31,086 nucleotides of DNA from a virus (IMGVR_UViG_2540341091_000008); one strand, 5' to 3'; numbered from the stretch's first letter, positions 1 to 22,698 are shown. Numbers and translations: made by a program. Notes: a model not told the origin generated them from the sequence alone.

Positions 1-1284
1 TTACAGACTTCTGGAAGGTTGCGCAGCTCTTACAACACGCGGTTGATCTTCCGCAGCGTCTTCCAGCGCACTTAAATCACGGTCTTTCACCTCTGGCATT
101 TTCAGCGCAGAGATTAAACCAATTACTGAATATGCCATGATCATAATGGCGATCGGATACCAGGATTCCGTCATGGTGCAGAAAATACCCGCCAGGATAG
201 GACCAAAACCGGAAGCGATAAGACCACCAATTTCTTTAGAAATAGCCATCCGGGTAAAGCGGTTTTTACAGCCGAACATTTCTGCCATGGTAATGTTTTC
301 CAGAGCAAATAATCCCAGCACCGCACAGTTATGAATCACAATCAGTGCAACCATAATGGTGCTCGGGGCATAGCTTTTATCTACAATGATAGAAAGCATT
401 GGCCATGCCAGCACAATCGCGGAGGTATTCATAATAATATACGGGATCCGGCGACCAATTTTATCGGATAACCAACCAAGGAACGGAATGGTCATAAAGC
501 CGAGAATCGAACTAATCATCAATGCATCTGTTGGAATTGCTTTGTTAAACAATAACGTCTGCACTAAATAGCCTGCAAGGAAAGTCTGAATTAACCCGGA
601 GTTACCCGCCTGACCAAAACGCAGCCCTGTTGCCAGCCAGAAGGATTTGCTCTGGAACATGCTACCAGCAGGTGCAGGTTTTGCTGTGGGTTGGTTGCTG
701 TCATTAACCTTCTCAAAGACCGGGCTTTCTTTCAGATTCATACGTAACCAGATAGCAAAGACCATCACGACAACGCTCGCCAGGAACGGTATACGCCATC
801 CCCACGCCAGCAGTTCCTCTTTACTGAGAATGAAGAACATAAAGGCCCAGATTGCCGTTGCGCTCAAGGTTCCGCAGTTAGTTCCCATAGCTACAAATGA
901 GGAGATAATTCCGCGCTTACCTTTTGGTGCATATTCCGCCAGCATCGTACCGGCACCGGAAATTTCCGCACCTGCACCCAACCCCTGAATAATACGCAGC
1001 GTCACCAGCAAGATGGGGGCAAAAACACCAATCTGTGCATAGGTCGGTAACACACCAATTAAGGTGGTACAGATCCCCATCATGGTGATGGTAATAAAGA
1101 GCACTTTTTTACGCCCTATTCTGTCGCCCATTTTGCCGAAAATAAATGCTCCGACAATACGCGCCACATAACCTGCACCGTAGGTTCCCATTGCCAAAAT
1201 TAACGCCATTGCCGTTGATGATTCAGGAAAAAATATTTCATGAAACACTAACGCTGCGCCGAGCGAATATAACTGGAAATCCAT
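1..1284 (-). CDS. ydfJ: MFS (metabolite:H+ symporter type) transporter, 427 aa; its 5' end abuts the prophage
   Basis: Long hydrophobic ORF with MFS signature (GKMGDRIGRKK loop, 12-TM pattern). The conserved N-terminal motif sits at the very first residues and there is no SD before the ATG, consistent with a 5' end displaced by prophage insertion. Confidence 0.85.
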   Translation of the reverse strand: MDFQLYSLGAALVFHEIFFPESSTAMALILAMGTYGAGYVARIVGAFIFGKMGDRIGRKKVLFITITMMGICTTLIGVLPTYAQIGVFAPILLVTLRIIQGLGAGAEISGAGTMLAEYAPKGKRGIISSFVAMGTNCGTLSATAIWAFMFFILSKEELLAWGWRIPFLASVVVMVFAIWLRMNLKESPVFEKVNDSNQPTAKPAPAGSMFQSKSFWLATGLRFGQAGNSGLIQTFLAGYLVQTLLFNKAIPTDALMISSILGFMTIPFLGWLSDKIGRRIPYIIMNTSAIVLAWPMLSIIVDKSYAPSTIMVALIVIHNCAVLGLFALENITMAEMFGCKNRFTRMAISKEIGGLIASGFGPILAGIFCTMTESWYPIAIMIMAYSVIGLISALKMPEVKDRDLSALEDAAEDQPRVVRAAQPSRSL

Positions 1285-1885
1285 AATTCACAGGTGTTTT
1301 TTCCCATCCTGTGGTTTCCTTGGCGTTTTCTAGGTTTTTTCAGATAGTTGCATTTTTTAAAAAGCATCCTAAGTTCGATCTCAGTGTCTATCTGGGGCCT
1401 ATTTCTGTCCCATATATGCCCCAAAAAGACTCCCAACAGATAAGTAGTTTTTCATGGATTTACGCGTAAAATCAATAACGGCTGGAAATCATTCAATACT
1501 CGCACTATCGAAAAATTTACCAGCCAACCGCAGCACGTTCTTGCATAAGGCGTGTCTGCGGTTTTTCAACTATTCAGATACATCACTCCCATCACATTCA
1601 TTCCTCCGCATCAAAGGCATATAGGCTATATCACCTTGATATTTTTCTTCTTCAGATAAAAATTGTTATCTATGTATACTTTTAAACCCAATCCGTGTAG
1701 AGTCTCTGCATAAGATAGTTTGCAGTTGCCGCTTCAGCTTGCGCCATAAACCGCCTGATTTTTGCTGCCACCTGTTAGCATTCCTGTATACCTGAAACGA
1801 CAATGTTTATCTACGAACTTTAAGAACACCCAAGATAAAAATTGTCAACCATATCATATATAACACATTACTAATTCGAGGCTAT

Positions 1886-1999
1886 ATGAACAGCATACTG
1901 ATAATCACTTCTCTCCTTATCATATTCAGCATTTTTAGTCATGCCCTAATAAAATTAGGGATTGGCATATCCAATAACCCAGACAAAACCGATGTATAA
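1886..1999 (+). CDS. hypothetical small hydrophobic protein, 37 aa ([37 protein letters not shown])
   Basis: ATG preceded by GAGG 4 nt upstream; one predicted TM helix. Below the ORF-track size cutoff; found by manual reading. Confidence 0.3.
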
Positions 2000-2067
2000 G
2001 CCAACATATCCTGAATCAGACATACAATATCGCAATGAAAATCAATAATATTTTAAGGAATATCTTC

Positions 2068-2301
2068 ATGAAATCAAAAGACACCCTAAAGTGGTTCCCT
2101 GCGCAGCTTCCTGAAGTAAGAATTATCCTAGGGGATGCTGTAGTGGAAGTAGCAAAACAGGGAAGACCTATCAATACCAGAACATTGCTTGATTACATTG
2201 AAGGAAACATAAAGAAAAAATCATGGCTGGATAACAAAGAATTATTACAAACAGCGATATCAGTTCTTAAAGACAACCAAAATTTAAATGGTAAAATGTA
2301 A
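2068..2301 (+). CDS. ydfK: Qin-type prophage small protein YdfK, 77 aa
   Basis: Internal ATG of the 2035..2301 ORF with AAGGA SD; product MKSKDTLKWFPAQLPEVRIILGDAVV... matches YdfK as recalled. Confidence 0.8.
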   Translation: MKSKDTLKWFPAQLPEVRIILGDAVVEVAKQGRPINTRTLLDYIEGNIKKKSWLDNKELLQTAISVLKDNQNLNGKM

Positions 2302-2618
2302 TATAATAAACTTACTTTTTTACCATTTTTCCACTTTAACAACATTTTGCTCCACTTTTCCACGACCAAACAACTTGAAATCTGGTTAAAATAACACGCA
2401 ACACTATTCTTCTTCCTTGAGTCCGCCCGGAACTCGAAAAACAAACCGAGTTAAAGCCTATTTTTCACAAAATCGATTTTGGGTCTCACCAAAATTACGG
2501 GGTTGCATACGCATTCGTTTATTTTCGAACGTGTACATACAAATATGCACAAAAATAATCATAATTATTTTCTGAGATGCATTATGATATGAACACCAAT
2601 TTCGTATAGAGTCTCACT

Positions 2619-3209
2619 ATGTCTCGAATTTTTGCTTACTGTCGGATATCAACGCTGGATCAGACCACCGAAAATCAACGCCGGGAAATCGAAAGTGCAG
2701 GTTTTAAAATCAAACCTCAGCAAATAATCGAAGAACACATTAGCGGCTCAGCAGCAACCAGTGAGCGTCCTGGTTTTAACCGGTTGCTTGCTCGCCTGAA
2801 ATGTGGTGATCAATTGATTGTGACAAAACTGGATCGCCTTGGTTGTAATGCAATGGATATCAGGAAAACAGTGGAACAACTGACCGAAACAGGTATCAGA
2901 GTGCATTGCTTAGCATTGGGGGGCATTGACCTGACCAGTCCAACAGGAAAAATGATGATGCAAGTAATTTCAGCAGTCGCTGAATTTGAACGAGACCTTT
3001 TACTTGAACGCACTCATTCCGGGATAGTAAGAGCCCGCGGCGCAGGGAAACGTTTTGGTCGACCACCTGTGTTAAATGAAGAACAGAAACAGGTGGTATT
3101 CGAACGAATTAAGTCAGGTGTAAGTATAAGTGCCATTGCCCGGGAATTCAAAACCTCGCGGCAAACCATTTTAAGAGCCAAAGCAAAACTTCAGACACCT
3201 GACATATAA
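2619..3209 (+). CDS. pinQ: serine recombinase / DNA invertase (Pin/Gin/Hin family), 196 aa
   Basis: N-terminal catalytic region ([10 protein letters not shown]...) and C-terminal HTH; resolvase/invertase family hallmarks. Confidence 0.95.
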
Positions 3210-3306
3210 AAAATAATCTCGGTGTGAGATGCTTTACGTCTTCCAAGCCCCCTTCCTTGCCGTAAATGGAAAGATACATCTAATTATAGAATTTATATGT
3301 TTTACC

Positions 3307-3882
3307 CTACGGCAGTGCTGGCCATTCAATATCCTGTGCAGTTGACGTATCAACACGGTTCAGCAATACCCGATACTTTTTCCATGCTTCCAGCAACGAG
3401 ATTTCTTCCTCCGTTGCAATTTCCAGATCTGCAGCATCCTGAAGCGGCGCAATATGCTCACTGGCTACCTGCATCAGGTTGTTTTTTGTTTCTTCCGCCT
3501 CCCGGATCCGGAACAGTTTTTCTGCTTCCGTATCCTTCACCCAGGCTGTGCCGTTCCACTTCTGAAACTCCCCTTCCGGGGATAACCAGGTGACATTTTC
3601 CGGTAATGGGCCAAGTTCAGAAATAAATAACGCGTCGCCGGAAGCCACGTCATAGACGGTTTTACCCCGATGATCTTCAACGAGATGCCACGATGCCTCA
3701 TCACTGTTGAAAACAGCCACGAAGCCAGCCGGAATATCTGGCGGTGCAATATAGGAACTGTTTGCTGGCAGACCTGTATGAGGCGGAATATATGCGTCAC
3801 CTTCACCAATAAATTCATTAGTTCCGGCCAGCAGATTATAAATTTTTATGGTCCGTGGTTGTTCACTCATTCTGAATGCCAT
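3307..3882 (-). CDS. tfaQ: tail fibre assembly protein, 191 aa
   Basis: Tfa-family sequence; ATG overlaps the stop of the upstream tail-fibre ORF (TAATG). Confidence 0.9.
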
Positions 3883-4814
3883 TATGCAAGCCTCACAATG
3901 TAGTTAAATGCGATGTTTTTGACGGTGTTTTCCGCGTTACCAGCAGCGTTAACGGTGATGGTGTGTCCATGTGAGCCAATCGCAACAGAGTGCGTATGAG
4001 CACCAATACCGACAGTATGTGCGTGAGCACCTGCAGATGCAGCTGTGCCGCTGACACTATGAGTGTGCGCTCCTGCAGCACTTGTATTCACACTGGCCGC
4101 AGACACTACCTTATGTACTGACCCATTTTGTGACCACTGGCTGATTGCTGATGCGCCTGTGACACTATGAGTATGGTTTCCGGCACTTGCGGCTGTACCG
4201 CTCACACTGTGCGTATGCGCCCCGGTGTTATTCGTGGATTTAGTGCCGTAATCAAACGACGATGTGGTTTTCGTCCCCAAATCCGTACTGGATGCGCTGG
4301 CGCTGTGGGTGTGCGATTTAATGCCGTCCTGTTCCTGAGACAATACGGCCCGACCACTGGCAGGTTTGCCCTTAATCGTCCAGCCACGCATATCAGGGAT
4401 CACGCCTGACGGATAAGCGGCTGCAAGTTTCGGGTAAGCAGATTTGTCAAAAGTCTGCCCCTGCATCAGGGCATAACCAGACGGAACGGTATCTGATGGC
4501 CACGGGATTGGTGCACCGACTGGATAAAACTCTGCAGGAGGATGAGCCGAGGTGTAAAGCTGCGCCCACGGCGACCAGTTTGCGTCGGTCGTATCCCGTC
4601 GTGAACGAATAAATGCCGGAGCATGAGCACCGCTTGTACCACTCCAGCCGATGAGTAACTCACCTTCGCCAACGGCTGTCATCCCTTTCAGGTGAATGAT
4701 ATTTCCATACGCTGTTGGATATCCGTTGTTATACACCTCGTATAACTCAAGACCTGCTGCCCCCTGCGTATTGTCTGTCAGCGCGGCTAACGCCCGCCAA
4801 ACATGGCAAACAGA
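3882..4814 (-). pseudogene. stfQ: side tail fibre protein, C-terminal fragment (N-terminal constant part missing)
   Basis: Ends with the tail-fibre C-terminus ...[14 protein letters not shown]; repeated [15 protein letters not shown] motifs. The frame is open upstream to 4814 with no credible start and runs into the 3' end of the head protease gene. Confidence 0.8.
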
Positions 4815-7294: not shown

Positions 7295-9384
7295 CCTCCG
7301 GAAGTCAGCCAGGGGTTAACATCGTCAGTTACTGTTTTCTTCCGTTTTTGTTTTTTAACAGGCGTGGATACCGGTTCCGGTGAGGATGACGGTTCGGTAC
7401 TGTCCTGGACACACTCCAGCCAGGTTTCCCGGCTCGCCCACTCCGGTGCATCCGGCCAGCGGATCTTTTCGTATCCATGCAGAATGACCAGAGCCTCGGC
7501 ATACACCATCAGGTCAAAAGCTTCGTTGGCACCGCGACCCGGCTTACTCCATTTCCCGTCACGGCTCCGCTCTTCATACGTCAGTTCGTCGTAAAACCAG
7601 CTCCCCAGCCAGTCAGGGAAATGCACATAGCCTGGACCTGGCGAGTCACGCCATAACGCGTTATTCACCCGGTCTTTCAGGGCATCCGTCTGAAGAAGCC
7701 AGAGCGGCACATCACCTGCGGCCTGCGCCCGGCGGCCCGTTCGTCCGGTGTTATCAGGGAATGTACGGCTGATCAGTTTTGCGCGCCGGATGCTGTCACC
7801 CTTAAACAGGTAAATACGTTTACCAAGGCCATCACGACGGCAACGACGCCAGAATTTATAGGCATTATCAGTGACCCCGTCTTCACCGCCGGAGTCCACC
7901 GCCATTGCCATCAGTCGCATTTGTTGAGAAGGATCGGAGGCCAGCGGCCAGCTTTTATGAAAAACATCCGTCAGCAGGACATCCCAGTCTTCCGGATAGC
8001 TGGCCGGATCAATTCGCTGGCTCTCCCCGTCGCAGTCACTGCGCAATGACTGCGTGATGTTGTAACGATCAATAATCCAGCGTTCGCCACGACTGCCATA
8101 GCCCGTTACCTGAACCACAAAACGGCGATGACGTCCCGCCTGCACATCCACTGTCGCCACAAGGAAATTAATGCCATCCGGCACACTGCGGGAAGGAACT
8201 GGCTCTGCCCGCTGCTCAAGCAGTTCACTTTTTCGTTGCTCCATGCTGGCACGAGGAAGATAAGGCAATCCCCAGTCGGTGTTGATAACCGCCCTGAGTG
8301 TTTCTTCGCTTCCTGTCGCTTCATACTCCTGTTCTGCAGTCAGTAATTTGTAAACCAGTTGCGCCCAGGTCTGATACGCAGCAGCTGGCCCTTCCATCCA
8401 GAAACTGGCGATACGGGAGCGGCGCGGTTCACCGGAAACGTTGCCGTTACGATCAATGACCTGACCTTCACGCAACCAGACTCCAGCACTATTGAGCTCA
8501 CGCTTTTTCTCCGCAGTGATAATGCCGCTGCAGTGCGGGCAAAGTAGATACGCCGCCTCACTGGCTTTAAAGGGATCCGGTTCATTACGGTAGCCGGTCA
8601 TGGCATCCATGGCTGGCTGAAAATATTCACCGCAGTGCGGACATGACCAGTACCAGCGGCGGCGGTCACCACGATTGTAAAGGGAAAGAATACCAGTCGT
8701 CGGTGGCGCTTCATGAGGCGACTTACGTCGCCATTTGCTGTCGCAGATGTCACGTCCCGGCGAGCTCTCCACCAGAGTCATCCCGGCGGACATAAATGTG
8801 GTGGTACGTTTTGAGGCCAGGGAGAAACCATCACCCTCGCTGTCGATATTCTCCGGAAAACGGTCGTAATCGGTTAAGGCGACAAACCGGTAATCCGACG
8901 ACGACATAATGTTGACCGAGGGCCAACCAATTTTAAGGAACGAGCCATCCCTGAACGTCTTATCATGGACATTATTGTCGTTACGACGTGGACTCATTCT
9001 TTTCTTTACCGCCGCACTGCTTCTGAACGTTCTGTCGAGGCGCTTTTTAGAATGCTCGCGGGCCTTATCTTCGGTCATCTGCACAACGAGCATGTCCGAA
9101 GGATCGCAAACGATGGTATAGACAATCCATCCATCGATCAGACCAATGGTCTTCCCTGTTCGCGCAGGACCAATAAAAATCACCGCATCGTATTCACGCG
9201 ATGCCAGGCAGTTCATGGGCTCAATGATGTAGGGTGTCAGTTCAGGATCCCATGGCACCGAGTTACCAGCCCCCTTGGGAACACGCATGAATTTTTTAAC
9301 AGCCTCCGAAATCGGCATGCGACGTGGTGGGGAAAATCCTGCCGATATGTCCCTTCCCAAATTTCGGGCTGATGAAAAACCCAT
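7285..9384 (-). CDS. terminase large subunit (lambda gpA-like), 699 aa
   Basis: Walker-A-like FIGPARTGKT, nuclease domain, size; ATG at 9384 preceded by AGGAGG. Confidence 0.9.
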   Translation of the reverse strand: MGFSSARNLGRDISAGFSPPRRMPISEAVKKFMRVPKGAGNSVPWDPELTPYIIEPMNCLASREYDAVIFIGPARTGKTIGLIDGWIVYTIVCDPSDMLVVQMTEDKAREHSKKRLDRTFRSSAAVKKRMSPRRNDNNVHDKTFRDGSFLKIGWPSVNIMSSSDYRFVALTDYDRFPENIDSEGDGFSLASKRTTTFMSAGMTLVESSPGRDICDSKWRRKSPHEAPPTTGILSLYNRGDRRRWYWSCPHCGEYFQPAMDAMTGYRNEPDPFKASEAAYLLCPHCSGIITAEKKRELNSAGVWLREGQVIDRNGNVSGEPRRSRIASFWMEGPAAAYQTWAQLVYKLLTAEQEYEATGSEETLRAVINTDWGLPYLPRASMEQRKSELLEQRAEPVPSRSVPDGINFLVATVDVQAGRHRRFVVQVTGYGSRGERWIIDRYNITQSLRSDCDGESQRIDPASYPEDWDVLLTDVFHKSWPLASDPSQQMRLMAMAVDSGGEDGVTDNAYKFWRRCRRDGLGKRIYLFKGDSIRRAKLISRTFPDNTGRTGRRAQAAGDVPLWLLQTDALKDRVNNALWRDSPGPGYVHFPDWLGSWFYDELTYEERSRDGKWSKPGRGANEAFDLMVYAEALVILHGYEKIRWPDAPEWASRETWLECVQDSTEPSSSPEPVSTPVKKQKRKKTVTDDVNPWLTSGGWL

Positions 9385-9392
9385 TATTCCTC

Positions 9393-9920
9393 CTAGAGAC
9401 TCTCTCCTTCCTCATCAGGAATTAATTCAGCAGCACAAGCCTCGTAGGATTTTTCCTGAAGAGTGTATCGCAGGTCATCAATTGCCTGCTGTACAACGCC
9501 GACGGCCTGAGGAGTCAGGGCGCAATCGCGTTCAAGAACATCCGGAATTGTCTCCAGAACCTGGACGACAGCCTTTCTCATGGACGAATAGACGATGACT
9601 ACTTCATCAACGGGGATGAGTTTTCGCTGCTCCTTTTCCAGCTTGATCCTTTCATTTTCAGACTGGTACCAGTCCTTTCTCTCTTTCGGCTCCATACGGG
9701 ATGGATCATGAACAGAGTCTGCTGCCTCATGCTTCACACTAAACAGGGCTGGCCCGACATGCTGCAGGGCGTAAACGGGGTTCCCCCTGACAGTCGCAGC
9801 CACAGGAGTGTTGGCCGCGAGAAGCCGTTTTTTTACTGTGTCCCGGTGAAGCCCAAAGGCCTCAGCGATTTTAAAAACACTCCAGTAATAAGCATCACCG
9901 ATCCCGCTCACATTTGACAT
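9393..9920 (-). CDS. nohA: terminase small subunit (Nu1-like DNA packaging protein), about 175 aa
   Basis: N-terminal HTH (YWSVFKIAEAFGLHRDTVKKRL), position upstream of gpA. Start at 9920 chosen for GGAG SD; ORF-track start is 9950. Confidence 0.8.
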   Translation of the reverse strand: MSNVSGIGDAYYWSVFKIAEAFGLHRDTVKKRLLAANTPVAATVRGNPVYALQHVGPALFSVKHEAADSVHDPSRMEPKERKDWYQSENERIKLEKEQRKLIPVDEVVIVYSSMRKAVVQVLETIPDVLERDCALTPQAVGVVQQAIDDLRYTLQEKSYEACAAELIPDEEGESL

Positions 9921-10094
9921 AAGCAACTCCATCTGGCAGGTGAAAATCATGTTTATTTATATATTTCAATTAATTGTAAACTGGTCTAATGACAGGGAGA
10001 AAAAAATATTGTACAGGTAAAAAGAGAAATAACTTTTAATTATCAATAAATTACCAAACATGCTGCCGCCGCCATGGAAATGCAAAAACTAGCC

Positions 10095-10125
10095 TTTTTC
10101 CGCGACGCTCCCGCCCCGTGGCAGG
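10095..10125 (-). other. putative cos site (cosN-like)
   Basis: Minus-strand ACGGGGCGGGAGCGTCGCGG resembles lambda cosN region ACGGGGCGGCGACCTCGCGG; GC-rich block in AT-rich DNA upstream of the Nu1-like gene. Confidence 0.3.
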
Positions 10126-10296
10126 GGCCCCCACCGGGAGGACCCGACAGCCTGACAGCCGTGACGAGCATCTGATACAGCGCTTTACATAATGGCATAG
10201 GAATAATTCAGAAGGACATCACAGCATGCCCACACAAATTAGTGTGAGTGTCCTGTTTCTTCCTACGCACAGGACTGACGAGCATGAGGGGAAAAT

Positions 10297-10464
10297 ATGC
10301 GAACCATAAATGCCTCATCTTCAGCAATGCAGCCGGCATCCGAACAGGACGATATTGTAAATTCACCTAATTACGAGGACATTGCAGTAGTTGAATTGCA
10401 GCTCTGTATTAGCCTGACAGTGACAGAATGCGATATTGACTCTGTCACAGGTGAAATAGTTTGA
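10297..10464 (+). CDS. hypothetical acidic small protein, 55 aa
   Basis: ATG preceded by GAGGGG; no recognisable family. Confidence 0.2.
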   Translation: MRTINASSSAMQPASEQDDIVNSPNYEDIAVVELQLCISLTVTECDIDSVTGEIV

Positions 10465-10484
10465 ATGATTAGCAGTTATGGTGC

Positions 10485-10691
10485 TCAGTCAACCACCAGG
10501 GAATAATCCTTCGAATTCTTATCGTGCTTCACCAACGCTGCCTCAATTGCCCTGAATGCTTCCAGAGACACCTGATGTTCTATACATGCAATTACAACAT
10601 CCGGGTAACTCATAGAAATGGTGCTATTAAGCATATTTTTTACACGAATCAGATCCAACGAGAGTTCATCAGCAGATTGTTCTTTATTCAT
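10485..10691 (-). CDS. hypothetical prophage protein, 68 aa (possibly the YnfO-like protein found between nohA and ydfO in Qin)
   Basis: ATG with GGAGCG SD; identity inferred from position only. Confidence 0.55.
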
Positions 10692-10991
10692 TTTGTCGCT
10701 CCATGCGTTTGCTCGTCATCTAGCGGTTAAAATATTACTTCAAATCTTACTGCATAAAAGAGGAAAAGTATGAAAGTTTGAGTACATCGACCTTACATAC
10801 ATCTGTCGGTTGCATATCCCTCCTGGATGCCAGCAAGGCTCAATTTTGTTACGCAATCAACACTATTCATTAAAAACAGGCTTAATATTTGACATAAATC
10901 ATCAACAAAACACAAAGAGGTCAGACCAGATTGAAACAATAAACACGATAATGAAAACTACGCGCCATCGTATCACATGGAAGGTTTACCA

Positions 10992-11402
10992 ATGGCTCAG
11001 GCTGCCATTTTTAAAGAAATATTCGATCAAGTGCGTAAAAATTTAAACTGTGAATTATTTTATTCTGAGCTAAAACGTCACAATATCTCACTTTATATTT
11101 ACTATTTAGCCACAGATAATATTCACATTGTGTTAGAAAACGACAACATAGTGTTAGTAAAAGGACTCAAAAAGGTTGTAAATGTTATATTCTCCAGAAA
11201 CAAACATCTTATAGAGACCTCCTATAATAAGTTGAAATCAAAAGAAATCACATTTCAACAATACAGGGAAAATCTTGCTAAAGCAGGAGTTTTCCGATGG
11301 GTTACAAATATCCAGGAACACCAAAGATATTACTATGCCTTTGATAACTCATTACTATTTACTGAAAGCATCCAGAAAACTACACAGATCTTACCACGCT
11401 AA
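10992..11402 (+). CDS. ydfO: DUF1398-family prophage protein YdfO, 136 aa
   Basis: [16 protein letters not shown]... matches YdfO as recalled; GGAAGG SD upstream; hairpin terminator follows. Confidence 0.85.
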
Positions 11403-11553
11403 ACCATAACGTCCGGCTTCTCTCACTCCTGAGCCGGACTGCATTGGTTTAATAAAAACCATCAACAATTGTGATTTAGATATTCGGAACCATTCAAATA
11501 TAACAAAACCCCGTAAAAACGAGGTTTATGGATAAATTTTATTATTGAATACA

Positions 11554-11730
11554 TCAGATTAAATTAATCTTGACATCATAGCTTTCAAGACCCGTCATTT
11601 TTTCCCGTGCGGTAAACTGAATACTGGTAACTTCTTTCCCGGTCTTTTTCTTAAGTTCAATAATTTTTTTTGTTATATATTCAGAAATATCTGCTTCTGC
11701 TTTTGTTTTTAAGTTTTCAATATTCATCAT
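11554..11730 (-). CDS. gnsB: GnsB-like small protein, 58 aa
   Basis: Manual translation MMNIENLKTKAEADISEYITKKIIELKKKTGKEVTSIQFTAREKMTGLESYDVKINLI; below ORF-track cutoff. Confidence 0.8.
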   Translation of the reverse strand: MMNIENLKTKAEADISEYITKKIIELKKKTGKEVTSIQFTAREKMTGLESYDVKINLI

Positions 11731-11898
11731 TTCCTCTTTTAGTCTGTTATGACTTTCCAGTTACACAGTAAGTCGATTATATGGTGCAAACGTGTAAAAG
11801 ATAAGATGAAACATCGCAATAATCAACATACGATAGTCTAAATTTTACACAAACAGACAAAGAGAATTTTCCTGAATTATCAATACAATAGCATCAAA

Positions 11899-12129
11899 TC
11901 AACTCAAGAGCCTTATTGCTGCTTCCAGAATTTCTTCTGAAGTAACATGTCGATCCGCGGCTACATAAATGACTTTATGATCTCCGGTCAGAGATGGAAA
12001 CCCTGCGGCCATTACAGTAAGGTGTGTTTTTTCGCCATTTGGATATTCACGCATGATGGTGTTAACTCCAGTCATCGCTGGCACTACCACTGCTGGTTCA
12101 GAGTTAAAAAAAACTATGATTTTTTTCAT
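11899..12129 (-). CDS. ynfN: YnfN-like small protein (76 aa from MKKII; alternative 51-aa form from MREYPNG)
   Basis: C-terminal 51 residues match YnfN as recalled; start ambiguous. Confidence 0.6.
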   Translation of the reverse strand: MKKIIVFFNSEPAVVVPAMTGVNTIMREYPNGEKTHLTVMAAGFPSLTGDHKVIYVAADRHVTSEEILEAAIRLLS

Positions 12130-12400
12130 GATGTTACCGTAGTATGTGAGTATCCATCGAATAGATACCAAGCAAAAAAGCTCCCGAAGGAGCCTTCATT
12201 TTCACTTTTTTAAATCCAACGACAGACGGCTGGCATTTAAGTATTGTGAAATATTATCAAATGTAATCATCATTGATTTACAAAAGATACATTTTGCCCC
12301 GAAAGGATTCATGTCAGAAACATCAAAAGATGATGTTCTATACTGGGAACCATGACAACACGGGCATCTAAAGTGAATATGGTTTGTAATATTGTCTACC

Positions 12401-12613
12401 TCAAAGCGCCACTACATGAACAGCGGCAGGACCTTTAGGTCCGTTCTCAATACCAAATTCAACTTCCTGATTCTCAGTTAATGTTTTGAAATCGTTGCTC
12501 TGAATTGCTGAGAAATGGACAAACACATCTTTGCTGCCATCTTTCGGCGTGATGAAACCAAAACCTTTTTCAGGGTTAAACCATTTCACTAAACCAGTCA
12601 TTTTGTTAGACAT
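12401..12613 (-). CDS. cspI: cold shock protein CspI, 70 aa
   Basis: Cold-shock domain with RNP motifs KGFGFI and VFVHF. Confidence 0.95.
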
Positions 12614-12976
12614 AATTATTACCTTTTGAAGAAATTAGCCCTTGGGCAGAATGGTCCGAAAAAAAATATCAGAGAGAAAAACCAACAAGGAAATCTCAAG
12701 AGGTACAAATAATAAAATTATAACAATGACTGCTTCAGATAAATTTGTAACAAACCAGAACACCATTAACGCATGATTAACCACCCATAGCAAGGATTAC
12801 TTTTGTAAAGAAAAACACAGCAATGAAAGAATAGCTTTATTTATTAATAATAACGTGTCATTCTGATTAAGACCTTTTATCTTACCCTTAAGATTTCAGG
12901 AATTTTGGCTCATGGAAGAGTCCTTTTTATTTAAATTTTACATTCCGCGATGTAAATGTTCCGATTTAATATTACC

Positions 12977-14981: not shown

Positions 14982-15006
14982 AAAAAACCCGCCTGAGCGG
15001 GTTTGA
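14982..15006. terminator. bidirectional rho-independent terminator
   Basis: AAAAAACCCGCCTGAGCGGGTTT: GC stem flanked by an A-run and a T-run; between convergent genes. Confidence 0.6.
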
Positions 15007-15285
15007 GATTGTGGTGCTTTTTGTGGGAGTCATCCACTTACGCACTTTGTTTTGCCATGCCAGCAGTTAGCTTCTGCTGTAAAACTATTCATGCAGCAAA
15101 CCTGCACTTCACCACAATGGTTAGCATACTTTTCCTGATTAAGATTTTGCCAAATATGCTGGCCATTGTTTCATGTATTGGACCTCCTTAATTTTTATTA
15201 AAGAAATCCAATATTCACTACTCTGTCCGTATCTCTACTCAGGCATCAGCCTTCTTCGTTATCGTATACAGACGAGCGATGAATT

Positions 15286-15501
15286 TTAATCAGTAATGAT
15301 GACATTTGCTGCTGCAGGACCTTTAGCACCACTCTCTATAGAGAAGGTAACCTTTTGACCTTCAAATAAGGTTCGATAATTATCATTCTGAATCGCAGAA
15401 AAATGCACAAACACATCTTTACTACCATCAACAGGAGAAATAAAGCCGAAACCTTTATCAGCGTTAAACCATTTTACTAAACCAGTCATTTTATTTGACA
15501 T
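15286..15501 (-). CDS. cspB: cold shock protein CspB, 71 aa
   Basis: Cold-shock domain; matches CspB as recalled. Confidence 0.95.
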
Positions 15502-15801
15502 TCTACATTCCTTAACTTGAGCCTTTCGGCATAAATGGTTTGCATAACAGAAACGACTTCGTACTTAATTGGAGAGACTCAAAGAAGGAATAAGTGAATA
15601 ACACCTGAAATGAGAACTGCTTTAGTAAACTACTTCGTATATCGTCTGTTCTTCAAACCGACGCAATCATTAACGCATAGTTGAACATATGAAGCAATGT
15701 TTATTTTAGACATCCAGCCATCTTCAACCCCATCAAAAAACTATAGCTTTCTTCAGGAACGTGTGTATAGTGCGCCAAGTTATCAGTATTAAGGAATTTT
15801 T

Positions 15802-16014
15802 TTGTCCCGTAAAATGACAGGAATTGTCAAAACCTTTGACGGCAAAAGCGGCAAGGGTCTTATCACCCCATCCGATGGTCGTATCGATGTCCAGCTTCAT
15901 GTTTCAGCGCTCAATCTCCGCGATGCAGAAGAAATTACCACCGGATTACGCGTGGAATTTTGCCGGATAAATGGTCTGCGTGGCCCTTCAGCTGCCAATG
16001 TTTACCTTTCATGA
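15802..16014 (+). CDS. cspF: cold shock protein CspF-like, 70 aa
   Basis: Cold-shock-domain fold; TTG start 8 nt after AAGGA (alternative ATG at 15814). Confidence 0.85.
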
Positions 16015-16067
16015 GCTATATTAAAGCTTTAATTTCAGGCCCCATCGGATCACACATGGAGAGTTTT

Positions 16068-16157
16068 TATGAATAACCCCGTCTGTCTTGATGACTGGTT
16101 GATTGGCTTTAAAAGCTTATGCTGTACTTTGGCCGTAATAGCTCTGCTAATAATATA
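16068..16157 (+). CDS. hypothetical small hydrophobic protein, 29 aa ([29 protein letters not shown])
   Basis: ATG preceded by GGAGAG at good spacing; one TM-like segment. Confidence 0.25.
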
Positions 16158-16306
16158 ATAAGCAGACTCATTGTGTTTAGGGACATTGTACTGGAAGAAA
16201 ACATTTTAAACATCAGGCAAATAACCAAGTCACCAGCTAAATAATAAGTTAACAGACATGAGTCCCGGGATGAGATTCAACATTACCATTGCCCCATTTA
16301 AAGCAC

Positions 16307-16330
16307 AAAACCCGCTCATCAGCGGGTTTT
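16307..16330. terminator. bidirectional rho-independent terminator; candidate tR'-like terminator for the late promoter
   Basis: AAAACCCGCT-CATC-AGCGGGTTTT perfect 10-bp stem with a U-tract on both strands. Confidence 0.65.
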
Positions 16331-16375
16331 CTACTTTTTCTTAACGTCGGGTATACAAAGCCCATCGTTGAAAAA

Positions 16376-16404
16376 ATTTTATCCATATTTTTTGAAAAAT
16401 GCAA
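16376..16404 (-). promoter_or_regulatory. candidate late promoter (pR'-like) downstream of the Q gene
   Basis: Minus strand: TTGCAT, 17-bp spacer, TAAAAT, about 30 bp past the Q stop and about 45 bp before the terminator hairpin. Confidence 0.5.
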
Positions 16405-18989: not shown

Positions 18990-19145
18990 TTACTCCTCAG
19001 GTTCGTAGACTGTGAAGACAGCGACCTCCGTCTGGCCGGTTCGGATTCGTACCTCGCAGAGGTCTTTCCTCGTTACCAGTGCCGTCACTATGACGGTTAA
19101 ACAGATGACGATCAGGGCGATTAACATCGCCTTTTGCTGCTTCAT
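18990..19145 (-). CDS. hokD: Hok-family type I toxin (HokD/RelF type), 51 aa
   Basis: MKQQKAMLIALIVICLTVIVTALVTRKDLCEVRIRTGQTEVAVFTVYEPEE; one TM plus conserved C-terminus. Confidence 0.9.
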   Translation of the reverse strand: MKQQKAMLIALIVICLTVIVTALVTRKDLCEVRIRTGQTEVAVFTVYEPEE

Positions 19146-19356
19146 AGCCTGCTTCTCCTTGCCTTTTGGCACGTAAGAGGCTAACCTAGATTTGCCGTTC
19201 ATAGATTGAGCCTCAGATTAATGTTAAGCGTCTTGCAGGACGCGTAATGTTAACTGGGGCTTTTCTCTATCTGCCTTTGGTGTTCATGCCTGAGACAGAT
19301 AGCCTCAAGCACCCGCAGCCATTCTACTTAACTCCCGTCACCTGGCCAATATAAAA

Positions 19357-19446
19357 TCAATCAGAAAGGCGATCCATAAGAACAACAGCAAGACAATAAA
19401 TTGCCATTACAGCTGCAATAGCCAGCGCACATTTGAGAACCAGCAC
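19357..19446 (-). CDS. hypothetical small hydrophobic protein, 29 aa (MLVLKCALAIAAVMAIYCLAVVLMDRLSD)
   Basis: GTG start 5 nt after a perfect AGGAGG; single TM; located where relE/relB would be expected upstream of hokD. Confidence 0.3.
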   Translation of the reverse strand: MLVLKCALAIAAVMAIYCLAVVLMDRLSD

Positions 19447-19731
19447 GACAACCTCCTGTATTGGACGTACACCAGTCCTGATAAATATGAGGCTCTCTCA
19501 TCATTGATGAGATACAACTATTGGGTATAGTTTCTGTGATTTTGTTCTGTAGAAATGGAACACAACAACCAGTAACCACCAGCGATTCTTTAAATACGCC
19601 AAATCCGACGCAAGCTAACCTTCTAGTCCGCTTTGGGCGAAGACCGGACGTTCGATAGGTGTGAACTAGTAACTTTAAAAACATTTAATTACCAGTAAAA
19701 AAACAAGAATATACTATCACTTTTCCAATTT

Positions 19732-20757
19732 TTAATTACCCTTATCAATTTTAAGAAATACATTTCCAATCTCATCAGAATAATCCTGTATTATTTTTGA
19801 AATGACGGCATGATCAATGGTTGGTTTTAAGAATAAAAGTGTCACAGTAATCTGCATCAAACTAATAGCAGTAGCATGGGCTGGATCAGCCATTCCTGAA
19901 TCACTTTGCCCGACCAATAATATATCATCACCAGTTTCACAGAGACCAAGCCTATTTCTCATTGCCTTGGAACCGGTGTGTACATTCTGACTCGCCCACT
20001 TATAATAAGGGCGCATGTGTTCTAACTGAACATCTTTCTCAATAGCTCCAAACCCCACTTTATTATGGTTAGGGAAAATATAAGATGCCCACCCATAATT
20101 ATCTGCATATTTTTTGCCGTATTTTTTTATTAATAGATCAAATTGAACTTTACACTCAGCTATTTCTTCAATAGTTGGACCTTTTGCTTCTAACCGGTGC
20201 TCGTACTTTTTGTGTTCCAACATTCCAGTATATGAATCAACCACTTCATGGTAGTAAAAGCGCTCAGCACACTCTTTTCCATGCTTTGCTATAAACATAG
20301 CTGTGGCTGCTACCTCATGAAGTGCTCGCCATCTCGCTTGGGCAGCATCTGCAAATCCATTCTTTAAGAGACACAAAATTTCGTTGGCGATGTGGCAAGC
20401 TCTTGCGTGATGCCGAACGACTAAATCAAAAACCACATCCTCTTCAGAGGCAGCTTGTGGTCTATAAGAACGATTGAACTCTTCACCGGACTCCGTGCAT
20501 ATCACTATAAGTGTTTCGAGCAAATCAAAAGCCTCTGCCCATCTTGAAATATTTCTCTCAACAAATTCATCACAAAGAGAACGATGTTCTCTAAGCATTG
20601 CATTGGCCGAGCCAATAAGAGATTTTTTAACGACAATGGCTATTTTGGGAATTAGGTTATTAATTTCTTTTTCGATATCAGCGTCACCAGATAAATCAAG
20701 TCTCTCTTTTAAAAGGCTGTCTATGTGCTCAAGCAAAATATTATGAAAAGTATCCAT
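19732..20757 (-). CDS. hypothetical protein, 341 aa (345 from the upstream TTG), AT-rich moron; candidate accessory or defence gene
   Basis: Long clean ORF in a markedly AT-rich island flanked by AT-rich intergenic DNA; no family recognised by eye; contains RWRALH (Rx4H). Confidence 0.7.
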   Translation of the reverse strand: MDTFHNILLEHIDSLLKERLDLSGDADIEKEINNLIPKIAIVVKKSLIGSANAMLREHRSLCDEFVERNISRWAEAFDLLETLIVICTESGEEFNRSYRPQAASEEDVVFDLVVRHHARACHIANEILCLLKNGFADAAQARWRALHEVAATAMFIAKHGKECAERFYYHEVVDSYTGMLEHKKYEHRLEAKGPTIEEIAECKVQFDLLIKKYGKKYADNYGWASYIFPNHNKVGFGAIEKDVQLEHMRPYYKWASQNVHTGSKAMRNRLGLCETGDDILLVGQSDSGMADPAHATAISLMQITVTLLFLKPTIDHAVISKIIQDYSDEIGNVFLKIDKGN

Positions 20758-20862
20758 ATCATATCTCAATAAGTTTTAAATCCATGTGGCACACCCATAA
20801 TATAAAAATAAACAGCATGCCAGTCTAAGTCTGGCTATTTGTATATCATATCACCTGAAACA

Positions 20863-20891
20863 TTGACAGATGTAACCCACCAAAATATTAT
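20863..20891 (+). promoter_or_regulatory. near-consensus sigma-70 promoter, antisense to the IS2-split gene
   Basis: TTGACA, 17-bp spacer, TATTAT on the plus strand. Confidence 0.4.
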
Positions 20892-20984
20892 CAATGACCA
20901 CTCTTGGCACAAAGCGAACAACCACGCTAGCTCTACCTTGTGCCATGAAAATGTCAATGCATATCTGAACTAATGCCCTTTAAT

Positions 20985-21367
20985 CTAGTAACGTCTAAAA
21001 TACCTAACATTTCCCTGATAAAATGCCATAATGCGCTGCATAACTTCGCTCTTCCGGCACTCGCGACAGATTATGTTTAGACAACTATCGTAGCGACGTA
21101 TTTCTCCGTCAGGTAATGACCAGATAAGGTCCGGATCAACCGCAGATGGTTTTTTCAGCTTTGCCCTTGAGAGCTTTTTACGGGCATTTTGCCAGTCCTT
21201 ACGCGCCTGTTCAGACGGGAATAACCCGTAACCAGAGTTGTATACATCGCCACTGGCAACCAGCTCTCTGGCCAGAACGCTCATCAGATATCTTGTTGCC
21301 CCAGTTTTAGTTTCCAGTTGTCGTAACGTCTCGCGCCCACTCTGGCGTACGAGTTCAACAACCTGCC
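20985..21367 (-). pseudogene. 3' part of a roughly 140-aa HTH-like gene split by IS2
   Basis: Frame continues across the IS2 and target duplication from the 5' part at 22699..22746; reconstructed N-terminus MAKVFTQEEREKIKGQVVELVRQSGRETLRQLETKTG... Confidence 0.6.
21363..21367. repeat. IS2 target-site duplication (CTGCC), right copy
   Basis: Identical 5-mer immediately flanks both IS2 ends. Confidence 0.85.
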
Positions 21368-21378
21368 TGGATTTGCCC

Positions 21379-22284
21379 CTATATTTCCAGACATCTGTTA
21401 TCACTTAACCCATTACAAGCCCGCTGCCGCAGATATTCCCGTGGCGAGCGATAACCCAGCGCACTATGCGGATGCCATTCGTTATAATGCTCGAACGCCT
21501 CTGCAAGGTTCTTTGCTGCCGTTAACCCGTCTGGTTTGGGCATGATACTGATGTAGTCACGCTTTATCGTTTTCACGAAGCTCTCTGCTATTCCGTTACT
21601 CTCCGGACTCCGCACCGCCGTGTTCTTCGGTTCAAGTCCCAACATCCGGGCGAACTGGCGTGTTTCATTAGCCCGGTAGCATGAACCATTATCCGTCAGC
21701 CACTCCACTGGAGACGACGGAAGATCGTTGCCGAAGCGGCGTTCCACCGCTCCCAGCATGACGTCCTGTACTGTTTCACTGTTGAAGCCGCCGGTAGTGA
21801 CCGCCCAGTGCAGTGCCTCACGATCACAGCAGTCCAGCGCGAACGTGACACGCAGTCTCTCTCCGTTATCACAGCAGAACTCGAACCCGTCAGAGCACCA
21901 TCGCTGATTGCTTTCTTTCACGGCCACTCTGCCTGTATGTGCCCGTTTCGATGGCGGTACAGCAGGTTTTCGCTCAAGCAACAGCGCATTCTGGCGCATG
22001 ATCCGGTAAACACGTTTGGCATTGATCGCAGGCATACCATCAAGTTCTGCCTGTCTGCGAAGCAGCGCCCATACCCGACGATAACCATACGTGGGCAGCT
22101 CTCCGATAACATGGTGTATACGGAGAAGCACATCCGTATCATCAGTGTGACGACTGCGGCGGCCATCCATCCAGTCATCGGTTCGTCTGAGAATGACGTG
22201 CAACTGCGCACGCGACACCCGGAGACAACGGCTGACTAAGCTTACTCCCCATCCCCGGGCAATAAGGGCGCGTGCGCTATCCAC
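21379..22284 (-). CDS. insD: IS2 transposase OrfB (InsD), 301 aa
   Basis: Matches InsD as recalled; DDE integrase-like core. Confidence 0.95.
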
Positions 22285-22607
22285 TTTTTTGCCCGTCCAT
22301 ATTCAACGGCTTCTTTGAGGAGTTCATTTTCCATCGTTTTCTTGCCGAGCAGGCGCTGGAGTTCTTTAATCTGCTTCATGGCGGCAGCAAGTTCAGAGGC
22401 AGGAACAACCTGTTCTCCGGCGGCGACAGCAGTAAGACTTCCTTCCTGGTATTGCTTACGCCAGAGAAATAACTGGCTGGCTGCTACACCATGTTGCCGG
22501 GCAACGAGGGAGACCGTCATCCCCGGTTCAAAGCTCTGCTGAACAATTGCGATCTTTTCCTGTGTGGTACGCCGTCTGCGTTTCTCCGGCCCTAAGACAT
22601 CAATCAT
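22242..22607 (-). CDS. insC: IS2 OrfA (InsC), 121 aa
   Basis: [26 protein letters not shown]...; overlaps insD as expected for frameshift-produced OrfAB. Confidence 0.95.
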
Positions 22608-22698
22608 CTGTTCTCCAATGACTAGTCTAAAAACTAGTATTAAGACTATCACTTATTTAAGTGATACTGGTTGTCTGGAGATTCAGGGGGCCAGTCTA

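Follow-up and report, generated by a model that had tools for sequence, protein, structure and literature searches.

The 31,086-nucleotide viral sequence IMGVR_UViG_2540341091_000008 (hereafter the window, meaning this whole stretch) is a Qin-type defective lambdoid prophage of Escherichia coli, and between its replication-region genes and Q it carries a minus-strand gene for a 341-amino-acid protein of the DUF5677 family. The gene belongs to the accessory cargo of the prophage and is a candidate for a conflict gene acting through a single protein, and its family, already catalogued, is widespread and uncharacterised in both Bacteria and Archaea. Together with its own short flanks it constitutes a genuine moron, a self-contained cargo cassette that moves horizontally, and mobile elements of at least four types, as well as chromosomes, carry it.

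A self-contained cassette in a variable prophage slot

The open reading frame (ORF) occupies positions 19732–20769 and specifies 345 residues if read from a TTG; the ATG at 20757 gives the 341-residue product, whose MDTFH start is the one used by the homologues. An identical 341-residue protein is present in RefSeq (WP_000379313.1, 'DUF5677 domain-containing protein'). The GC content of the gene is 38.5%, with values of 51, 34 and 31% at the three codon positions (the third being 30.7%), against 47.6–53.7% in the neighbouring genes (DUF977 gene 47.6%, Q 47.8%, hokD region 51.2%, ydfU 52.9%, IS2 53.5% and a 358-amino-acid replication-region gene 53.7%). The intergenic DNA is also AT-rich on both sides, at 36.6% GC upstream (20758–20984) and 38.4% downstream (19560–19731). 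An initial annotation, made from the sequence alone, had described just such an AT-rich frame, flanked by AT-rich intergenic DNA and located between the replication genes and Q, and the description holds in each of these respects; the ORF map and the RefSeq annotation both place the gene between replication-region genes and hokD/ydfU/Q. The window as a whole has a GC content of 46.3% (standard deviation 6% in segments of 1026 nt), and 12% of segments of equal size are equally AT-rich. The island around the DUF5677 gene is genuine but one of about four in the window.

The limits of the mobile unit emerged from two sets of comparisons. Compared with lambdoid prophages without the gene, the backbone is homologous as far as 19653 and again from 20901–20904 onwards, and homology with gene copies residing in P2-like and other backbones covers 19667–20915. 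These boundaries therefore define a unit of ~1.25 kb, made up of the gene with flanks of ~140 nt on its 5' side and ~70 nt on its 3' side (Table 1). Flanking repeats were considered as a mark of recombination, and the short two-copy matches that were found are judged to be due to chance; one repeat (CTAGTAAC..) present at 19666 and 20985 lies off the junctions. In the 3' flank, no conserved RNA structure (-0.28 kcal/mol) and no Rfam match were detected, and no convincing terminator emerged.

The place in which the cassette resides, between the DUF977 gene and hokD (19334–20985), is a variable cargo site in Qin-like and other lambdoid prophages (loci L012–L016). The backbone is common to related prophages on both sides of this slot, with hokD, ydfU and Q on one side and the DUF977 and replication genes on the other, and the slot contents differ: the Qin prophage of strain K-12 has relBE, ydfV and flxA, other related prophages have an alpha/beta hydrolase gene on the opposite strand, a gene for the epoxyqueuosine reductase QueH, or small ORFs, and strain P393-F10 has ~1.5 kb without annotation between hokD and the DUF977 gene. 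The points at which homology breaks off likewise vary (19160, 19334, 19388 and 19653). The comparison of gene content across Qin-like prophages, which the initial annotation had proposed, thus shows the same position holding different cargo. The inference of a horizontally acquired moron, made there from base composition and position, is borne out by this variable slot, by the sharp junctions and foreign GC content of the insert, by its presence in 73 of 5,426 complete E. coli genomes (1.3%), and by its recurrence in unrelated backbones.

The same cassette, encoding proteins of 77–86% identity, is found in a second lambdoid backbone and in P2-like prophages. In the former (loci L111–113), it lies between a replication initiator and activator on one side and UmuD-like and DUF968 genes on the other. 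In the P2-like prophages, it is inserted between a tail-completion gene (S-like, phrog_26) and a baseplate V-like gene (phrog_9992), in either orientation (L109, L117, L120, L121 and L123); in three of these (L120, L121 and L123) it is carried on the strand opposite the tail operon. Beyond these phages, a relative of 69% identity (P0032) sits at the cargo end of an island with integrase, AlpA and D5-primase genes in Enterobacter and relatives, a relative of 59% identity (P0115) is inserted by itself among the housekeeping genes of a Photobacterium chromosome, and the SPbeta-like Bacillus phage SPR carries a relative of 29% identity. Other relatives reside on plasmids of Spirosoma, Caulobacter, Planctomyces, Planococcus, Haloferax and Haladaptatus. 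The gene is present in 1 of 50,697 phage records and in 35 IMG/VR contigs. The copies compared stay at 35–41% GC in every host.

Some of these settings include further genes beside the cassette. In one P2-like prophage (L109), an extra unassigned gene of 234 amino acids stands next to it, and in another prophage contig (L110, 9821–13169) it adjoins a gene for an 816-amino-acid protein that PADLOC does not recognise. Next in order comes a gene for a DNA methyltransferase, type II or orphan (E = 6e-96), and these two neighbours may form a restriction–modification pair. In the integrase/AlpA/D5-primase islands (L002–L006, about 8001–11533), the DUF5677 gene is followed by a gene for a protein of 777–779 amino acids whose sole recognised feature is a C-terminal SEC-C motif; in one genome this gene is divided between ORFs of 264 and 464 amino acids. 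The host genes that border the island differ from genome to genome. Disrupted copies of the DUF5677 gene itself also occur: in E. coli GPEC1054 (NZ_CM142793.1) it is split by ISVsa5, and the annotation of some Enterobacter hormaechei genomes shows it as fragments of 82 and 260 amino acids. Inactivated copies therefore persist.

The conserved 5' flank has features that could serve for expression. It contains a CAGACT/TAGACT tandem at 20822–20833, a TATATT hexamer ending at 20799 and a weak GAGA Shine–Dalgarno sequence. At the level of consensus matches, TAGACT and a TATCTT or TATATT hexamer separated by 17 nt form a sigma-70-like pair, the position of which, 39–47 nt before the ATG, is conserved. 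The (C/T)AGACT-TAGACT tandem is common to the 5' flanks across backbones (L108–L117) and may act as a -35 element or as an operator. The copy in the window can additionally pair into a 5-bp hairpin, which the other flanks do not conserve; apart from the TAGACT doublet, no tandem repeats were detected. Expression in lysogens from a promoter of its own is suggested by two arrangements: the antisense placement in P2-like late operons, under which the cassette would have to supply its own promoter, and, in the window, the location of IS2 between the early promoter region and the gene.

The gene stands alone, without a partner. Its neighbourhood was surveyed in 80 diverse loci from many phyla by ORF calling and clustering of our own over the five genes on either side, and within that range no neighbour family recurs; most of the flanking intergenic gaps in these loci exceed 50 nt. 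An Rfam scan of the flanks found only the neighbouring sok, with no antitoxin or regulatory RNA and no conserved structure. Neither an adjacent partner gene (80 loci) nor a repeat RNA (flanks), the hallmarks of a type II or type III toxin–antitoxin module, was thus identified.

Family membership, conservation and predicted structure

The initial annotation had considered the family of the protein unassignable, a view that does not survive profile searching. The protein matches the Pfam family DUF5677 (PF18928) at 118 bits, with a cut-off of 27.1 (E = 5.8e-34), its residues 112–274 aligning with profile positions 3–162 of 166, and it matches PHROG 27456 ('unknown function') from end to end; a search of NCBIfam gave no match. 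All 81 relatives tested, a set of representatives with 27–54% identity to the query on which the conservation analysis was also based, match DUF5677 as well. The protein is a full member of DUF5677/PHROG 27456, sharing its length, motifs and architecture with hundreds of relatives and differing from them in none of these features.

The family is large. A word-index search returned 553 relatives, and an exhaustive profile search at least 3,558 clusters at 50% identity, 1,608 of which scored below 1e-30. Copies in Vibrio, Colwellia, Sulfurovum, Nitrospirae and Desulfuromonas are ~60% identical to the E. coli protein over its full length, and more relatives are found in many metagenome-assembled genomes of Chloroflexota and Dehalococcoidia and in one of Methanobacteriota. 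The source names of the cluster members read only 'DUF5677 domain-containing' or 'hypothetical', and a literature search for DUF5677 and PF18928 retrieved essentially no literature, the mentions found including none on function. Among the 150 best-scoring representatives, about 60 are 400–440 amino acids long, with an unannotated N-terminal extension of ~90 amino acids, and two relatives (P0157, 840 amino acids; P0177, 671 amino acids) have long N-terminal regions in which hydrophobic segments, identified by eye, resemble membrane anchors. A check for domain fusions revealed no Pfam partner domain in the longer relatives.

Comparison with homologues of 77–86% identity gave ratios of non-synonymous to synonymous substitution rates (dN/dS) of 0.12–0.19: the protein is functional and under purifying selection. 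Across the 81 representatives, L130, G134, R142, R144, E148, W223 and H260 are invariant, and E126, D137, W143, H147, Y221, E240, R249, Y252, G283, S285 and G288 are conserved in at least 90%. Motifs shared over the full length of the family are RLHARAC, ARWRxLHE, YGWA, RPYYKxA..H and GxSxxG..DP. Four of the invariant residues are the polar R142, R144, E148 and H260, and E126, D137, H147, E240 and R249 are near-invariant. This pattern suggests an enzyme or a ligand-binding site, which R142, R144, E148, H260 and their neighbours would form; no fold or profile match backs a particular chemistry.

The product is most likely a soluble, all-helical protein. An AlphaFold2 model built from a 35-sequence alignment is entirely helical, with a mean predicted local distance difference test (pLDDT) score of 81.5 and a predicted template-modelling score (pTM) of 0.78. 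It begins with a long N-terminal helical hairpin (residues 28–104) and places the conserved polar residues on helices 108–132 and 136–159 and on the flexible segment after residue 258. The R142–E148 motif falls in the first two turns of helix 136–159, and H260 begins a low-confidence segment (258–282), with pLDDT values below 50 at residues 258–269 and 273–282. Comparison of the model with the PDB and BFVD by Foldseek found nothing at E < 0.1 (for the PDB, nothing at E < 0.2). At the sequence level, neither phmmer nor two profile searches against the PDB recovered a meaningful relative or a solved structure for the DUF5677 family.

A candidate role in conflict between mobile elements

What does such a cassette do for its carrier? 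The reading that we tentatively prefer, with less than even confidence, is that the gene encodes a conflict effector, consisting of a single protein and expressed in the lysogen. The ~1.25-kb cassette, once inserted into the replication-to-Q region of the Qin-type prophage, would be transcribed from its own promoter independently of the phage early and late operons; the protein would then act alone when a competing element enters the cell, its target being a conserved nucleic acid or nucleotide and the outcome superinfection exclusion or abortive infection (Abi). The contexts in which the family occurs elsewhere are suggestive only. Among the immediate neighbours of the family are type IIG and type II restriction genes, PD-Lambda-1, Old, a DrmC-like PLD nuclease, an LA2681-type HEPN gene, Uma2, AbiEii-like AAA_21 ATPases and transposases, and an FRG-domain gene (the PADLOC candidate PDC-S15) is the immediate neighbour in two loci. 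A 2025 preprint reports DUF5677 as significantly enriched in Bacillota beside serine recombinases that mark defence loci (PMC12632615). A family so widespread, conserved and uncharacterised makes the gene a reasonable but unproven candidate for phage exclusion.

Several observations weigh against that proposal. PADLOC-DB v2.0.0 contains no family that matches the query at E ≤ 1 and none that is matched by more than one of the 81 relatives. The only published test of a DUF5677 gene is that of a Bacillota ORF, one of nine assayed against six Enterococcus faecalis phages, which was not among the five for which protection was reported (PMC12632615). The insertion site in P2-like prophages, between S-like and V-like genes, differs from the defence hotspot of P2, which lies between gpA and gpQ (PMC9122126). 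In the 80 loci, many neighbours are ordinary metabolic genes, the conservation of the family is unusually high for a defence gene, the promoter evidence is at consensus level only, and neither a fold nor a profile match indicates what chemistry an effector would perform. More doubtful than the general proposal is its fullest form, in which DUF5677 would found a family of single-protein immune or Abi effectors without structural counterpart and with new chemistry, common to Bacteria and Archaea, built on a non-HEPN R-x-R-x3-E/His260 site, expressed in lysogens from their own promoter and shuttled on the 1.25-kb cassette among lambdoid phages, P2-like phages, satellites and chromosomes.

Some of these same facts accord with a role outside defence, as a selfish addiction or toxin-like gene stabilising the element, as a counter-defence factor or factor of competition between mobile elements to the advantage of the carrier phage or satellite, or as a hitch-hiking stress or metabolic enzyme of benefit to the host; we consider such a role somewhat unlikely. 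In its favour, beside the negative outcome of the one reported defence assay, stand the conservation across phyla, which together with the low dN/dS fits an enzyme with a conserved cellular substrate, the many chromosomal copies surrounded by housekeeping genes, without a mobile or defence gene beside them, and the company kept in the slot, where other occupants include relBE in K-12, QueH and the hydrolase, with hok/sok next door. Each variant meets an obstacle. Addiction is hard to reconcile with the lack of a partner antitoxin gene or conserved RNA in the neighbourhoods surveyed, and the persistence of IS-disrupted and frameshifted copies, with no obvious companion, makes an addiction module of strong toxicity less likely. 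Phages are the typical carriers of counter-defence genes, and the DUF5677 gene is very rare in sequenced genomes of virulent or temperate phages, as the counts given above indicate. A housekeeping enzyme, finally, does not fit with a patchy distribution and an unameliorated AT-rich composition. That the gene serves the phage itself as a core gene of its nin or replication region, in replication, recombination or regulation, might be read from the position of the gene in the early-right operon, between the replication genes and Q and in the same orientation, and from its occurrence at the equivalent place in a second lambdoid backbone. Most related prophages lack the gene and hold other cargo at that slot, however, and it recurs in P2-like tail operons, islands, plasmids, archaea and lone chromosomal sites; its composition is foreign to the backbone and PHROG 27456 has no assigned function. 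This pattern of presence and absence effectively refutes a core role.

A more specific idea concerns chemistry. The initial annotation had pointed to RWRALH as a weak match to the Rx4H pattern of HEPN nucleases. The motif is indeed present (residues 142–147, nt 20317–20334), and kinship with HEPN beyond it was not found. As an RNase of the HEPN superfamily, the protein would use R142-x4-H147 as its Rx4-6H motif, dimerise to form a composite, metal-independent site and, like lactococcal HEPN Abi proteins, cleave tRNA, rRNA or mRNA on infection, a scheme that appears improbable. It does have points of contact with the data: no stretch of the family is more conserved than the one that holds the motif (R142 in 81 of 81 and H147 in 79 of 81), the model has three long helices before the helix whose first turns contain it, which would fit the HEPN layout of a four-helix up-down bundle with the motif opening the last core helix, and the protein is all-helical, stand-alone, AT-rich in its coding sequence and borne by mobile elements. 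Against these stand the profile results, since the Pfam HEPN-clan models match neither the query at E ≤ 1 nor any of the 81 members at E ≤ 10, and no HEPN-containing PADLOC model recurs among the 81 relatives. In a fold comparison, 2hsb, which alone among the top 60 chains has a HEPN description, ranks 18th, below Rop, rhodopsins and the C-terminal bundles of acyl-CoA dehydrogenases, and its similarity therefore looks like that of a generic helical bundle; the Foldseek search of the PDB described above adds no HEPN relative. Within the motif, H147 is replaced by Tyr in 2 of the 81, R142 is followed by Trp rather than the polar residue usual in HEPN motifs, and the invariant R144, E148 and H260 fall outside the HEPN dyad. 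A search for internal duplication, as would give two HEPN-like halves, found no second repeat.

The nearest comparisons with characterised systems follow the same lines, and the resemblance to lactococcal Abi proteins and to the DUF4238 protein of P2 is one of lifestyle only, not of sequence or demonstrable fold. The lactococcal-type proteins AbiD/AbiF, AbiJ, AbiU2 and AbiV, which reportedly contain HEPN domains, are similarly stand-alone, all-helical, AT-rich and carried by mobile elements, and have a conserved R-x4-H stretch near the start of a helix; the DUF5677 protein may work in a similar way. It differs from them in having no profile similarity to HEPN families or to the PADLOC Abi models, a fold similarity no better than that of generic bundles, and a His that is not invariant. 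With rexAB of lambda and fun of P2, both exclusion genes, and with relBE of Qin and hok/sok, the gene shares its organisation as an independent unit between conserved phage genes, its foreign GC content and its patchy presence, and its slot elsewhere holds toxin–antitoxin loci, as befits the classical prophage morons; in sequence it is unrelated to these morons and exclusion genes. The comparison extends to the P2 exclusion genes old and tin (PMC9122126), to which it is equally unrelated in sequence; its position in P2-like phages is between tail-completion and baseplate genes rather than in the gpA–gpQ hotspot, where defence systems have been demonstrated. The DUF4238 protein of the P2 hotspot is likewise a single-protein, DUF-only cargo of temperate phages, and its demonstrated anti-T7 phenotype shows that such proteins can be potent defences (PMC9122126); no such phenotype is known for DUF5677. 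The novel systems named in a 2026 study of P2 and P4 hotspots, going by their descriptions, do not correspond to the DUF5677 protein. That study's P4-hotspot defence system 'Aernus' includes a mannitol-repressor-like protein. In Kushneria konosiri (L007, 6485–9029), a DUF5677 gene directly follows an MtlR-like gene and an FRG-domain gene (PDC-S15, E = 1e-63), with YoeB/YefM nearby.

The host prophage and implications

Table 1. Features of the DUF5677 cassette and of the adjoining prophage backbone, in window coordinates
Feature	Position	Strand	Basis
Coding sequence, 341 amino acids, DUF5677 family	19732..20757	-	ORF, Pfam PF18928, PHROG 27456, RefSeq, dN/dS
Whole mobile cassette (gene with own flanks), ~1.25 kb	19655..20900	-	Limits of backbone and cassette homology; junctions +/-15 nt
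Conserved 5' flank with promoter-like hexamers	20758..20900	-	Alignment of 5' flanks from six other contexts
Conserved 3' flank of cassette	19655..19731	-	Alignment of 3' flanks
Codons of the most conserved family motif, R142-W-R144-A-L-H147-E148	20314..20334	-	Alignment of 81 representatives
Codon of invariant H260, start of low-confidence segment 258-282	19978..19980	-	Conserved in 81/81
Upstream backbone gene, DUF977 family, left edge of variable slot	20985..21404	-	RefSeq; adjoining cargo varies among related prophages
Backbone downstream: toxin gene hokD with sok antisense-RNA region, right edge of slot	18990..19314	-	RefSeq; Rfam RF01794

The window is collinear with the prophage of E. 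coli APEC O78 (NC_020163.1), with 100% identity across the 1.7 kb tested. According to the RefSeq annotation, the prophage is without most tail genes and is therefore defective. Directly downstream of the cassette, hokD is accompanied by the sok RNA, which Rfam recognises at 19140–19314 (109 bits). Upstream, an IS2 element (InsC and InsD ORFs, with a programmed frameshift in RefSeq) is inserted at 21379–22652, between the 358-amino-acid replication-region gene and the DUF977 gene, and its end overlaps the annotated DUF977 start. This insertion probably interrupts read-through of the early-right operon into the DUF977 gene, the DUF5677 cassette, hokD and Q.

Elsewhere in the window, further AT-rich islands (GC 0.33–0.40) lie at about 1000–3200, 10150–12900 and 15000–16400. 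The latter two hold gnsB, ynfN, cspI and cspB/cspF according to the APEC O78 annotation, and the former covers the 5' end of a transporter ORF of the major facilitator superfamily, an ORF-free stretch at ~1285–2618 and an invertase gene. Judged by eye and by analogy with the Qin prophage of K-12, the left end of the window (1–4736) contains this truncated transporter ORF of 427 amino acids, which is probably ydfJ-like, a gene for a Pin-like serine DNA invertase (2619–3209), and a tail-fibre assembly gene with a C-terminal fragment of a tail-fibre gene.

If the DUF5677 protein is indeed a conflict effector, a very widespread single-gene system would be added to the catalogue of defences, and since no relative can be recognised by fold, new chemistry could be involved. 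Should it have no role in conflict, DUF5677 would still rank among the larger families of uncharacterised proteins spread by temperate phages, and its example would warn that an AT-rich moron need not be a defence gene. The small size of the 1.25-kb cassette and a set of five conserved residues (R142, R144, H147, E148 and H260), among which H147 would discriminate for or against a HEPN activity, make the question directly testable in E. coli.

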